The notes beneath the pieces are model-generated. The model worked only from the letters and a program-made list of their open reading frames with translations. It searched no databases and had not been told where the DNA came from. The translations under genes and the position numbers were made by a program. Shown in pieces: positions 1 to 4,759 of a stretch of DNA of 64,000 nt (the first letter of the stretch is position 1; each line of letters begins with the position of its first letter). The stretch comes from a virus. The stretch is taken from positions 1 to 64,000 of the IMG/VR virus record IMGVR_UViG_3300023174_000141, one strand, 5' to 3'.

Positions 1-1161
1 GGCACCAAGGACCTCAAGCGGGTGAAGGCCCTCGTCGAGGAGTGCCTCGGAGACAACGCACCACGCACCGAGAAGGGCGCCATCAGCACGGACCGCGAGT
101 GCCTCCTGCGCACCGGGCATCCGGCGCTCAAGGCGGTGGCGGAGCTCGGCGCGATCGACAAGCTGCGGAAGACCTACGTGCCGATGCTGTTGCAGGGGAC
201 CGAGGTCCCCATCAACCCGGCGTGGAACACGCTCGTGGAGTCGGGGCGCACCTCCTGCCGCGAGCCGAACCTTCAGAACCTGCCTCGCAAGGGCGGCGTG
301 CGGGAGTGCTTCATCCCGCGGAAGGGGCGCATCTTCGCCTCCGCCGACTACTCGACCCTCGAGCTCTGCACGCTCGCGCAGGTCTGCCTCGACCTCTTCG
401 GCCACAGCGCGATGGCCGAGGCGCTCCACGCTGGCCGCGACCTGCATCTCCAGATGGCCGCGAGCATCCTCGGCGTGGACTACGACGAGGTCCTCCAGCG
501 CCACAAGGCGAAGGACCCGCAGGTCAAGGAGATGCGGCAGCTCGCGAAGGCCGCCAACTTCGGGTACCCGGGCGGGCTTGGGGCGGCTTCGTTCCAGACC
601 TACGCGGCGGCCACCTACAACGTCACGGTGTCCGAGGAGGAGAGCCGTCAGCTCAAGGCGCAGTGGCTCGAGGCGTGGCCGGAGATGCGGTCGTTCTTCG
701 ACCACGTCGGCGGGCAACTCCAGATGCGCGACGCCTTCGACCTGGTTCAGCCGCGCTCCGGGCGCATCCGCGGCCAGGTGGGCTACTGCGACGGGTGCAA
801 CAGTCACTTCCAAGGGCTCGCCGCGGACGGCGCGAAGGCAGCGCTCTTCTTCATCCAGCAAGAGTGCTACACCGGGAAGAGCGAGATCTGGAAGGGCGCC
901 GGTCCCTCGCCGCTCCACGGGTGCCGCATGGTGGCGTTCATCCACGACGAGTTCGTCCTCGAGGTTCCCGAGGCCCTCCCCCTCGCGCAGGCCGCCGTCG
1001 CCCGACTCGTTGAGGTGATGGTCGAGGGCATGGCGCTCTACGTGCCGGACGTCCCCATCAAGGCCGAGCCGACGCTCATGCGCCGCTGGTACAAGGAGGC
1101 CGAGCCGGTGTGGGACGAAGCGGGGCGTCTGCTCGTGTGGGAACCGAAGGAGAAGGCTTGA
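1..1161 (+). CDS. polA: DNA polymerase family A, polymerase domain (5'-truncated by window edge)
   Basis: SGRTSCREPNLQNLP; motif A ADYSTLE; motif B RQLAKAANFG; QGLAAD; motif C FIHDE. The frame is open from position 1. Confidence 0.96.
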   Translation, partial: GTKDLKRVKALVEECLGDNAPRTEKGAISTDRECLLRTGHPALKAVAELGAIDKLRKTYVPMLLQGTEVPINPAWNTLVESGRTSCREPNLQNLPRKGGVRECFIPRKGRIFASADYSTLELCTLAQVCLDLFGHSAMAEALHAGRDLHLQMAASILGVDYDEVLQRHKAKDPQVKEMRQLAKAANFGYPGGLGAASFQTYAAATYNVTVSEEESRQLKAQWLEAWPEMRSFFDHVGGQLQMRDAFDLVQPRSGRIRGQVGYCDGCNSHFQGLAADGAKAALFFIQQECYTGKSEIWKGAGPSPLHGCRMVAFIHDEFVLEVPEALPLAQAAVARLVEVMVEGMALYVPDVPIKAEPTLMRRWYKEAEPVWDEAGRLLVWEPKEKA

Positions 1162-2436: not shown

Positions 2437-3014
2437 ACATCGAAGACATCGCTCACCCGTCGTGGGAAGAACGCGGCTGGACGCGGACGAAGGTGACCAT
2501 CCGCCTGTTCAACCAAGGCCCGAAGCCCGACATCGACGCGCTGACGCACCCCGACGCACCGGGGCTTGCGCTTGTCGGCTACGAGTTCTCCCTCATCGAT
2601 GGCTCCAACACCGTCAACTTCACGCACATCGGCACCGGGATGGACGCGGGGCTGCTCTACGTCGCCCGCGACTGCCCGCCGTGCCCCGACACGCTGCGGA
2701 ACGCGGCCAGCGCGGCGTGCGCGGTCGTCGACTACAAGCGCATCACGCTGAACGAGGCGCGTCAGCTCCCGCCGTCGGTGCGCGAGAAGGCACGCGCTCC
2801 GTTCCGCGACCTCAACGAGCATGAGTGCGAAGCGTGCGCGTGGTGGCACGTCGCCCGCCTCCCGAAGCGCATCGCGAAAGTGGAGCGAGAGGTCGCGGAG
2901 TTTCGGGATGCCGTGGCGAGCGCGGAGGATGCGCTGGCCGAGGCTGAAGACAACCTGCGCGATGCCCTCGCTGAACTGAACGAACTGAAGGCGCGGCTGA
3001 AGGAGAACCCGTGA
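2433..3014 (+). CDS. Hypothetical protein with Cys pairs and C-terminal coiled coil
   Basis: ATG at 2433 (MNIEDIAH...) after GGAGG; CPPC and CEAC; heptad-like tail. Confidence 0.75.
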   Translation: MNIEDIAHPSWEERGWTRTKVTIRLFNQGPKPDIDALTHPDAPGLALVGYEFSLIDGSNTVNFTHIGTGMDAGLLYVARDCPPCPDTLRNAASAACAVVDYKRITLNEARQLPPSVREKARAPFRDLNEHECEACAWWHVARLPKRIAKVEREVAEFRDAVASAEDALAEAEDNLRDALAELNELKARLKENP

Positions 3015-3091
3015 CTGAAGTGCTGGACATCACGATGTGGCTACTCGACCGGCTCGCGGACCTCGCCCGCTGGCTCGGGAGGTGGCCGTGA
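3011..3091 (+). CDS. 26-aa peptide (MTEVLDITMWLLDRLADLARWLGRWP)
   Basis: GTGA overlaps at both ends; SD AAGGAG. Confidence 0.45.
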   Translation: MTEVLDITMWLLDRLADLARWLGRWP

Positions 3092-3330
3092 TCGACCTCG
3101 ACGCCCTCGAGGCAGCCGTCGCCGAGGGCGAGAAGAAGAACTTCTTCGTCGCGCCCATCGTGAAGGAGCTGATCGCGGAGCTGCGCGAGGCCCGCGGGGA
3201 GCGCGCCGCCGTGGTGGCGGCGTTGAGGCGAACGTCGAACCACGGCCCGATGGGCCTATCGCTGGTCAACCTCGACAGCATCGCCGACGCCATCGAACGC
3301 GGCGAACACCGCCGCAAGGAGCAGCCATGA
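3088..3330 (+). CDS. Small hypothetical protein, Ead/Ea22-like start (IDLDALEA)
   Basis: GTG at 3088 after GGAGG; ends in the GEHRR junction repeat. Confidence 0.7.
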   Translation: MIDLDALEAAVAEGEKKNFFVAPIVKELIAELREARGERAAVVAALRRTSNHGPMGLSLVNLDSIADAIERGEHRRKEQP

Positions 3331-3542
3331 AGGAAGCCGGAGAACGACCAGAAGGCGTGCTGCGGACGGTACGCGATGTGTCGCTATGCACGACGAGCGT
3401 GTACTTGAACGACGAACTCGTCGGCATCGTCTCGGATCTTCAGTTGATGCGCATGACGCGCGACGGCGTGTCTATCGACTGGAACGCATGGCGTGCTGCG
3501 AAACTGACTGACGGCGAGCACCGCCGCGAGGAGACACCGTGA
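3327..3542 (+). CDS. Small hypothetical protein
   Basis: ATGA/GTGA overlaps; bounded by junction repeats. Confidence 0.7.
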   Translation: MKEAGERPEGVLRTVRDVSLCTTSVYLNDELVGIVSDLQLMRMTRDGVSIDWNAWRAAKLTDGEHRREETP

Positions 3543-3829
3543 CTGACGAGCCATGCGCGACCTGTGGACACCCGCGCCGTGTCCACGATCCGGAAGACCT
3601 GAACTGTGAGACGCACGCGGACGTGGGCCTGGGCCGGTGCCCGTGCAACCGCTTCATGGGCCTGGACGCCGAGGTGGAGCGGCTGCGCGCGGAGGTGGAG
3701 CGGCTGCGCGCCGAGAACCGGAAACTCCGCGATGTGCTGGAGTGGGTCAACGTCCAATGCCCCGGCAAGTGCGCGGGTGTCTGCGATGCCGCGCTGCGCG
3801 GCGAGCACCGCCGCGAGGAGGAATCATGA
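3539..3829 (+). CDS. Small Cys/His-rich protein with AEVERLR coiled-coil repeat
   Basis: CATCGH..H, C..CPC, CPGKC..C; 21-bp tandem duplication at 3671-3711. Confidence 0.75.
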   Translation: MTDEPCATCGHPRRVHDPEDLNCETHADVGLGRCPCNRFMGLDAEVERLRAEVERLRAENRKLRDVLEWVNVQCPGKCAGVCDAALRGEHRREEES

Positions 3830-4155
3830 CCGAGGAACAGATCGCGCTCGCCCGTCGCGCCGTCTCCTGCAAGGGCTGGCGATGGATGCCGGGAATGCGT
3901 GTGCTTGGCGGTGACCGCATCACCGAGCGCACGCTCGCCATTGACCACGGCGCGTTTCCCGACCTCACCGACCCCGCCACGCTGGGCTGCCTCCTCGCGC
4001 TGGTGCGAGAGGCTCGGGGCGAGCCGACCTACCTCCCGACGTGCCTCGACGCTCACGACGAGGCATGGGTCATCAACCCACCGATCCCGTGGCGGCAGAC
4101 GCGGTACGAGAGCTACGCATCCGTTCTTCTCGCCGCGCTGGAGGCTGCGCCATGA
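3826..4155 (+). CDS. Phage hypothetical protein (PDLTDPATLGCLLALVREA motif)
   Basis: ATG at 3826 overlaps the previous stop; motif recalled from phage hypothetical proteins. Confidence 0.75.
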   Translation: MTEEQIALARRAVSCKGWRWMPGMRVLGGDRITERTLAIDHGAFPDLTDPATLGCLLALVREARGEPTYLPTCLDAHDEAWVINPPIPWRQTRYESYASVLLAALEAAP

Positions 4156-4352
4156 AGCGACTGTTCAAGAAGGGCGACCGCGTGTCGCTCGGCCCCAACG
4201 GCTACCGCCCCGGCGTCGTCCTCGACGCGGTGACGGACGACTGGCTCGGCGAGCCCTTCCAGATCCTCGACATCCGCATCGACGGTGCCGAGGGCACGTC
4301 CATCCGCATCCCCGACACCAACGTCCAGCTCCTCGAGGAGGCACCGGAATGA
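4152..4352 (+). CDS. Small SH3/KOW-like hypothetical protein
   Basis: FKKGDRV beta-rich pattern; ATGA overlap. Confidence 0.7.
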   Translation: MKRLFKKGDRVSLGPNGYRPGVVLDAVTDDWLGEPFQILDIRIDGAEGTSIRIPDTNVQLLEEAPE

Positions 4353-4759
4353 GCAGCATCTTCCTGGCCCACAGCAAGCAGACCCCCGACGAGACCATCA
4401 ACGAGTGGGTCGAGGCCGCAGCCGTGCTGTGGCGCTACGACGTCACCGCGGGCCGCGACGACTACATGGCCCGCAGCCGCGCCATCGGCGGCTGGAACGC
4501 GTGGGTCAAGGACGTGCCCATCGCCGAGGACTGGGGCGGTGAGCCGCTCTTCACCGGCATCGCCGTGCCGCTGGAGGACCTCGAGCGGCCCATCGTCGGG
4601 AGGGCCACCCAGGTCCTCGTCGAGGGGTTCATCGCCGCAGGCAAGCAAGCGTGGGCGTTCTGCCCCGAAACCGGCGAGGCGCGTACCGTGCTCGCCATCG
4701 TCAACACCGAGCTCGATAGCTGGACCGACGCCGGCTGGCTCGTCTACACGTTCGCGTAG
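4349..4759 (+). CDS. Hypothetical protein
   Basis: SD GAGGAGG; ATGA overlap; MSSIFLAHSK start. Confidence 0.75.
   Translation: MSSIFLAHSKQTPDETINEWVEAAAVLWRYDVTAGRDDYMARSRAIGGWNAWVKDVPIAEDWGGEPLFTGIAVPLEDLERPIVGRATQVLVEGFIAAGKQAWAFCPETGEARTVLAIVNTELDSWTDAGWLVYTFA

Follow-up and report, generated by a model that had tools for sequence, protein, structure and literature searches.

A coding gene-junction repeat and an intragenic block bracket a hypervariable module in small early proteins of freshwater phages

Why do three consecutive and dissimilar small genes of a virus end in the same short repeat? The question is raised by IMG/VR virus record IMGVR_UViG_3300023174_000141, a record of 76 kb whose first 64 kb (hereafter, the window) were analyzed. 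A 30-nt repeat lies on the plus strand of the window at positions 3301–3330, 3513–3542, and 3800–3829, at the ends of three genes that we call A, B, and C. A first-pass annotation of this DNA had quoted the three copies, and they are present exactly as quoted. The 21-nt core of the repeat, GGCGARCACCGCCGCRAGGAG, has three exact matches in the window, all in the plus orientation, compared with 0.05 expected by chance; no dinucleotide shuffle reached three, and no fourth copy is found anywhere in the 76-kb record. As that annotation had also described, each window copy is translated as G-E-H-R-R-(K/E)-E-x-x-stop, carries AGGAG 5 nt ahead of the following start, and ends in an ATGA or GTGA overlap. 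Primarily, the repeat is the C-terminal DNA end-block of small early phage proteins that form a large, mosaic, and unannotated family; we call it block 2. We assign a probability of roughly one half to the reading that it serves as a portable gene-junction module which, together with a second block inside the gene (block 1), supplies short homology for exchange between related freshwater phages. The elements and genes concerned are as follows.

Block 1, 3199–3228, plus strand: E-R-A-A-V-V-A-A-L-R in the window; its 21-nt core (3199–3219) has invariant DNA throughout the family and marks a mosaic breakpoint.
Hypervariable module of gene A, 3229–3288, plus strand: about 20 codons; 92% identical in locus L017, which has a different N-module.
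Block 2, copy 1, 3289–3330, plus strand: A-I-E-R-G-E-H-R-R-K-E-Q-P-stop; possible hairpin at 3298–3316, AGGAG at 3317–3321, ATGA at 3327–3330.
Block 2, copy 2, 3513–3542, plus strand: tail only, T-D-G-E-H-R-R-E-E-T-P-stop, with a GTGA overlap; environmental contigs break at 3512.
Block 2, copy 3, 3800–3829, plus strand: L-R-G-E-H-R-R-E-E-E-S-stop, with an ATGA overlap and full 7-bp hairpin potential.
Gene A, 3088–3330, plus strand: 80 aa; has all parts of a mosaic-family protein, from N-module and block 1 to variable module and block 2.
Gene B, 3327–3542, plus strand: 71 aa; unrelated small protein with a tail of 7–9 residues; a single-gene unit with the repeat on both sides.
Gene C, 3539–3829, plus strand: 96 aa; contains a Cys-rich N-part, a coiled coil, and, as its last 46 residues, a family variable module.

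The repeat is widespread and its anatomy is fixed. A search of contigs for it, as the first-pass annotation had proposed, found the exact 21-nt core in 61 IMG/VR stretches, with different genes between copies in different phages. The peptide-degenerate pattern GGN GAR CAY CGN CGN GAR GAR matched 113 IMG/VR stretches, and removal of chance hits left 90 unique genuine copies, a sample partly ascertained through the exact pattern. All 90 lie in gene orientation and encode G-E-H-R-R-E/K-E, with a stop one to four (usually two) codons later; in nearly all of them an ATG or GTG overlaps the stop and the distance from AGGAG to this start is 5 nt. The gene families downstream are diverse. Upstream of the core, most copies encode A-D-x-I-E-R with synonymous variation (ATC/ATT, GAA/GAG, CGC/CGT), and in A-type copies conservation reaches further upstream, into this segment. 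Sequencing runs that contain window DNA derive from lake, freshwater, and drinking-water metagenomes (13 studies), and contigs of freshwater runs X1–X4 include pieces at least 99% identical to the window. A host assignment from six genome-collection hits was rejected, as the taxonomy of the metagenome-assembled genomes (MAGs) was inconsistent (Pseudomonadota, Opitutaceae, Actinomyces, Myxococcaceae); three of the six MAG contigs, at 67–93 kb close to the size of a phage genome, are probably mis-binned phage.

Proteins of the family consist of a variable N-module, block 1 (ERAAVVAWLR), a hypervariable module of 12–37 aa, and block 2 at the C-terminus, and block 1 was found 23–47 aa upstream in 61 of the 90 copies. 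Its core has a single exact match in the record. Of the three tail-bearing window genes, A has block 1 followed by the variable module and block 2, C lacks block 1 but has the other two, and B has nothing beyond the tail. An alignment of 54 A homologues (A3) shows a near-invariant N-part of 47 residues with block 1 at its end, then 12–25 hypervariable residues, and the invariant end A-D-A-I-E-R-G-E-H-R-R-E-E. An AlphaFold2 model of A (mean predicted local distance difference test score 83) has helices at residues 4–16, 23–52, and 59–70; the variable stretch is predicted to be a loop, and G-E-H-R-R-K-E-Q-P an unstructured tail. A Foldseek search of the PDB with this model gave no match at E ≤ 0.001, and none of 219 homologues of gene A has a Pfam domain or an informative name. 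A scan of IMG/VR for A-type N-modules yielded 6 loci, and a metagenome scan was added; the resulting 28 A-type genes (IMG/VR and JGI metagenomes) have further optional inserts between N-module and block 1.

Single-linkage clustering merged 121 proteins via the shared blocks. One chimeric protein, P0040, matches window A without a difference over residues 3–44, as far as the end of the block-1 core, and matches the last 46 residues of C at 85% identity. Because P0040 joins the N-part of A to the end of C, the 3′ half of C can be identified as a family variable module. The description of the three genes as dissimilar needs adjustment in this respect: BLASTP among A, B, and C recovers the tail alone (7–16 residues), but A and C have the C-terminal architecture of the family in common. 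The three genes are not full-length paralogues; had they been, this would have spoken against cassette exchange.

The tail itself is not uniform, and it occurs on proteins of other kinds. In approximately 15% of family representatives it is altered or broken (GAH, GKH, GEHLRSS, GEHRP). A homologue of gene D (the gene that follows C in the window) in L057 has the tail added after its normal last residue (…A-L-E-V-A-P), whereas other D homologues are without it. A 56-residue open reading frame (ORF) at L047:4140–4307 (minus strand) combines a DNA_pol_A fragment (E = 2e-8) with the tail G-E-H-R-R-E-E-E-P, and appears to be left over from the joining of a polymerase gene to the junction module. 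The 14-codon mini-ORF at L024:378–422, M-T-I-E-R-G-E-H-R-R-E-E-K-P, is a start plus block 2 only; it looks like a family gene deleted from its start (ATGACCATCGA…) to CCATCGA of block 2. The same tail also ends proteins of 261–284 residues at L016:2646–3494 and L063:1722–2504 (both minus strand), which contain an alanine-rich short-period array (units AAARAAAG / AAWDAAW) and have no Pfam match. At L059:9152–10856, six successive small genes directly after a DNA polymerase all carry the tail or a variant of it (GEHRREE, GQHRREE, GDHHREE), the longest tail-bearing array seen.

The blocks are conserved as DNA. Across the 90 copies, GGC has a share of 97%, compared with 41% in local codon usage, and CAC a share of 91%, compared with 62%. 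CGC accounts for 93% at the first arginine and 98% at the second (38% in local usage), and the final GAG GAG for 100% (local GAG usage, 72%), with GAGGAG invariant in 90/90 copies. The glutamate of I-E-R prefers the rarer GAA (40 versus 29), and codon optimization is therefore not the explanation. A second sample, the 28 A-type genes, was picked by N-module peptide patterns and is therefore unbiased at block sites. Here the major codon occupies 70% of four-fold sites in the N-module (275/391), 98% in the block-1 core, E-R-A-A-V-V-A (153/156), and 94% in the block-2 core at R, G, R, and R (93/99); the major-codon share in a conserved block of gene D is about 50–80%. As the N-module of these genes is conserved to the same degree, the 94–98% in the cores indicates that nucleotides are constrained or homogenized there, and that the peptide alone is not responsible. 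The two cores of approximately 21–24 nt are nucleotide-invariant beyond the need of amino-acid conservation. The first-pass annotation had named such a synonymous comparison as a check, and its outcome is conservation at the DNA level that exceeds what a Shine-Dalgarno (SD) sequence or a peptide requires.

Breakpoints between relatives fall at both blocks. Window gene A has its N-module in common with L014, L006, and L033 (up to 97%) and its variable module in common with L017 (92%), and the switch lies inside block 1; the same variable module is found after at least 15 different upstream contexts. L033 and L058 have collinear flanks that are 96.8% (3.3 kb) and 96.6% (5 kb) identical, between which lie 768 and 633 nt, respectively, without similarity. 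The replaced segment contains a variable module and two genes in L033, and a variable module, B, and a 111-aa member in L058. Identity stops just past the block-1 core and returns exactly at CATCGAACGCGG of block 2, before gene E of the chain. Both arrangements recur in independent samples (one in L014, L058, and L008+L049; the other in L031 and L033), which argues against assembly chimeras. Gene B stands between two repeat copies in four different neighbor contexts. Tracts that are at least 93% identical have 209 internal endpoints, of which 62 fall no more than 20 nt from a block; random placement would put 12.9 ± 3.4 there.

Assembled environmental contigs branch at the same places. Contigs of four freshwater runs part at 3219, 3291, 3512, and 3796–3798; in one run, at least nine contigs link block 1 to block 2 over different inserts; and in many contigs similarity to the window begins at 3796–3800, at copy 3. 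We considered whether the contig joints could be repeat-to-repeat deletions and rejected this, as they are other family members with other inserts. A back-joint from 3820 to 3091 was likewise rejected as a circle, being another phage's gene order. The earlier proposal of repeat-bounded cassettes thus holds in part: relatives do gain, lose, or replace genes at the repeat, and a pair of approximately 97% identity shows a multi-gene replacement whose right breakpoint is exactly at the repeat, but the repeat is primarily the native block 2 of one family (61/90 with block 1). Exchange is not confined to whole genes. The intragenic block 1 is an equally good breakpoint, so sub-genic modules are exchanged too.

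The reading that we favor would account for these observations in the following way. The 30-nt repeat is the 3′ conserved block of widespread, unannotated small early proteins in freshwater phages of approximately 70 kb and high GC content. One DNA stretch does three jobs, encoding the unstructured tail G-E-H-R-R-E-E-x-x, placing AGGAG 5 nt before the next start, and ending the gene inside ATGA or GTGA. Blocks 1 and 2, near-identical in nucleotides, bracket the hypervariable module, and related phages that co-occur could cross over within them to swap sub-genic modules, single genes (B), or multi-gene segments. Swaps at the blocks would keep both the reading frame and translational coupling. 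We infer that the breakpoints were probably made by homologous recombination rather than by illegitimate joining plus selection, and the synonymous invariance suggests that the nucleotide constraint stems from a nucleic-acid role of the junction, as a recombination substrate and/or as hairpin plus SD, and not from the peptide alone. Tentatively, and with considerably more doubt, the two anchors may be kept by selection as recombination handles of a population-wide cassette exchange that diversifies the hypervariable loop and neighboring genes. If so, phages would have a counterpart to the segmental gene conversion behind antigenic variation, one that operates in frame and keeps translation coupled, and the tail on unrelated proteins would be a footprint of the exchange system.

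Several points weigh against a special role of the repeat in exchange. When sites rather than endpoints are counted, 14 of 69 block-2 junctions (20%) and 6 of 41 block-1 sites bear an endpoint, compared with 31 of 230 other gene junctions (13.5%). The excess at block-2 junctions is approximately 1.5-fold per site and is not significant, and so the repeat is not established as a privileged hot spot. Mosaicism is general and high throughout the region, and the repeat is one junction class among several. Linkage of neighbors is 33–38% at motif junctions and 54–57% elsewhere, a comparison that is small in sample and confounded by region; genes were called with a codon-log-odds caller. Unrelated genes that share a block for whatever reason are expected to show breakpoints at its edge, and hence most of the similarity starts at 3796–3800 do not discriminate between explanations. 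Crossovers alone leave the invariance of the blocks unexplained; a function of the RNA or the peptide, kept by purifying selection, could be its cause, with recombination as a by-product. All data are metagenome assemblies, in which assemblers could mis-join or homogenize at short repeats, and a second A-type gene is cut short by the end of the record itself, exactly at block 1, which shows that the blocks disturb assembly. The complete record has no reverse transcriptase, tyrosine integrase, RecT, or YqaJ. A PD-(D/E)XK nuclease gene adjoins one for an AAA_24 (Sak4-like) ATPase at L159:3014–5168 (record 67014–69168); the ATPase scores 26.5 bits versus a cut-off of 27, and this pair is the sole candidate for a phage recombination module in the record.

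The same invariance could arise at the level of RNA, with the hairpin and AGGAG acting as a start-associated leader of the downstream gene (in coupling, mRNA stabilization, or regulator binding) and with the tail peptide and recombination as by-products. We consider this possible but clearly less probable than exchange at the junction; it is also compatible with the favored reading, as the cause of the invariance. A 7-bp G+C hairpin, CGCGGCG-AGCAC-CGCCGCG, lies directly 5′ of AGGAG and is present in the minimum-free-energy fold of 3/3 window copies. Its loop holds the two most variable positions of the core (the third bases of GAR and CAY), and of 19 third-base changes in the stem, 13 replace C by T and so preserve pairing as G-U, although this excess also fits plain transition bias. 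The invariance of GAGGAG in every copy and its fixed distance to the start favor an RNA element, as does the graft behind the L057 homologue of D, which comprises the whole unit of hairpin, SD, and start; an analogous arrangement is known in cluster K mycobacteriophages, where start-associated sequences (SAS) with an upstream inverted repeat form extended SAS (ESAS) (Pope et al., 2011, PMC3203893). Against it, compensatory covariation is absent (0 double changes), pairing does not exceed that in column shuffles, and fold z-scores are only –1.1 to –1.6. An RNA element also leaves the equal invariance of block 1, far from any start, unexplained, and the tail of B is kept whatever gene follows, or none, so that the block travels with the upstream gene and not with the downstream one. 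Long-range pairing between blocks 1 and 2 was rejected, with a z-score of –0.68 for the 146-nt fold and no complementarity on inspection.

A functional C-terminal tag, with G-E-H-R-R-E-E as a short linear motif for docking or degradation and the DNA repeat reflecting peptide plus SD, is in our judgment distinctly improbable. Such a tag would suit a tail that is predicted to be unstructured beyond the last helix, the synonymous variation of the upstream A-D-x-I-E-R codons, and the arrays of up to six successive tail-bearing genes in L059; moreover, the tail is retained in all 10 clusters of B homologues, although identity over the remainder of B falls to 63%. However, peptide selection does not predict the synonymous invariance of the core relative to an equally conserved part of the same gene, and the altered or broken tails in some 15% of representatives do not suit it. 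Tails on a polymerase fragment, on relics of 14–19 codons, and on one D homologue only look like passengers of a DNA joint. A dedicated diversification machinery acting on the module between the invariant blocks, of the kind found in diversity-generating retroelements (DGRs) or integrons, is far less probable still and, for this genome, largely refuted. DGRs combine a reverse transcriptase with a template repeat that matches the variable region save at adenines, and integron cassettes combine a tyrosine integrase with attC imperfect inverted repeats of approximately 60–140 bp. A hypervariable segment flanked by two G+C-rich anchors that are both invariant as DNA, with a hairpin in the second, resembles the initiation-of-mutagenic-homing (IMH) site and hairpin of a DGR or a cassette site. 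Yet neither RVT_1 nor Phage_integrase is matched in the complete record, the variable modules are of unequal length and unalignable rather than adenine-substituted versions of one template, and the record has one block-1 copy and no template repeat. Unlike attC, the repeat spans 24–40 nt and its inverted repeat just 7 bp.

Among known systems, the promoter-early stem-loops (PeSLs) in hyperplastic regions of T4-type phages (Arbiol et al., 2010, PMC2839356; Comeau et al., 2014, PMC4122927) offer one parallel. Like PeSLs, the repeat is a short conserved sequence between small non-essential early genes, combines a regulatory signal with a stem-loop, and probably gives homology for indels, replacements, and modular shuffling among related phages; a block-bounded replacement between close relatives, as PeSLs produce, is seen in L033 and L058. 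PeSLs, however, are intergenic sigma-70 promoter/terminator cassettes, whereas the repeat lies in coding sequence and contributes the tail, the SD, and the stop/start overlap. Between 2900 and 4400 we found 0 promoter-like sites and no terminator-like site, and no T-run follows the 7-bp hairpin. PeSL mini-circles have been shown physically, while the present system is known here from assembled contigs alone, and it has a second, intragenic anchor in block 1.

The SAS and ESAS of cluster K mycobacteriophages, in which an AGGAG-containing asymmetric repeat precedes starts and ESAS add an upstream inverted repeat (Pope et al., 2011, PMC3203893), provide another. As with SAS, which lie 3–7 bp before starts in one orientation and in varied families, the repeat stands a few nucleotides upstream of starts (AGGAG 5 nt before ATG/GTG) in non-structural genes of different families, is conserved past the region of rRNA pairing, and can contain the stop codon of the upstream gene. 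The 13-bp SAS consensus GGGATAGGAGCCC and the core here, CGCGGCGAGCACCGCCGCGAGGAG, have AGGAG alone in common, and the ESAS inverted repeats are 17 bp with a spacer, compared with a 7-bp hairpin. SAS have not been described as a constant in-frame tail, as the conserved end of a protein family, or as a recombination breakpoint. With no promoter or terminator, a different sequence, a coding nature, and a place in a protein family, the repeat belongs to neither PeSLs nor SAS/ESAS.

Ordinary 4-nt stop/start coupling needs only an SD and the overlap; here, 15 extra nucleotides are invariant across unrelated genes in dozens of phages. Short conserved boundary sequences that direct homologous exchange of unrelated modules recall the modular theory of Susskind and Botstein, which is said to have invoked boundary "linker" sequences for module exchange among lambdoid phages. 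Evidence for linkers in lambdoid phages is sparse, and most junctions there are put down to illegitimate recombination plus selection. In contrast to such linkers, the shared block here is long (24–40 nt), invariant, and present in many copies. The present system combines a coding, in-frame junction module with an anchor inside the gene, the two enclosing a hypervariable module. The family bears on the old question of whether phage mosaicism proceeds via conserved linkers or via random joints filtered by selection, and it offers a clean natural test-bed, with two invariant blocks, dozens of interchangeable modules, variants that co-occur in single lake samples, and close relatives that differ by a block-bounded replacement. 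Through a single junction sequence, unrelated proteins can come to have the same C-terminal tail, and in annotation a common tail need not imply a common function. For metagenome assembly, contigs (including that of the window) break at the blocks. The family has hundreds of members and no Pfam model, and its hypervariable loop makes it a candidate for an arms-race protein.

The genes lie in a chain of small genes (3011–4759) in which every junction is an ATGA or GTGA overlap. Besides A, B, and C, it comprises the following.

26-codon mini-gene, 3011–3091, plus strand: GTGA-coupled at both ends; conserved left neighbor of gene A.
Gene D, 3826–4155, plus strand: 109 aa; the commonest gene downstream of the repeat; without a tail itself.
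Gene E, 4152–4352, plus strand: right-hand anchor; in the window it follows D, but in L014, L058, L031, and L033 it comes directly after the repeat.
Gene F, 4349–4759, plus strand: next gene of the chain.

Pfam and PHROGs searches with the proteins of A–F returned nothing informative, and 50,697 GenBank phage records contain no DNA match to 2900–4400; relatives of the DNA polymerase among GenBank phages are 32% identical or less. The 26-codon ORF, which encodes V-T-E-V-L-D-I-T-M-W-L-L-D-R-L-A-D-L-A-R-W-L-G-R-W-P, is 92–96% identical in L008, L014, L031, L033, and L058, and 85% identical in a copy at the end of the same record. In L014, L033, and L058 an insertion of approximately 220 nt separates this ORF from gene A.

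The record begins inside a family-A DNA polymerase gene (window 1–1161), and its last stretch, L159:7167–12063 (record 71167–76063), encodes a second, complete polymerase of 1315 aa, with a UDG-like domain and a LAGLIDADG insert. This polymerase gene has no DNA similarity to the first; after it, in the same stretch, come the copy of the 26-codon ORF and the A-type gene truncated at block 1. Two variants that co-occur may have been wrapped into one contig, with assembly having stopped at the repeat. A Dam methylase gene (L159:6733–7167) lies after the nuclease/ATPase pair, and a gene for a SNF2-type helicase at L159:172–2964 (record 64172–66964) is split by an intein with an HNH endonuclease domain.

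Gene D is the usual neighbor of the repeat on its downstream side: 19 of 20 clustered D-type proteins are encoded downstream of a repeat copy, and at least seven different sequences lie upstream of D-type N-termini. Gene D is itself mosaic, with DNA-conserved blocks at approximately 3826–3898, 3958–4022, and 4124–4158 and variable segments between them. Environmental contigs join 3897 to 3956, and 4001–4022 to 4130, over other inserts, and summed depth at 3958–4031 rises to approximately 650 in one run. The 3′ end of D and its junction (4124–4158) are 94–100% identical in several otherwise different contigs, and thus form a second junction block with another sequence.

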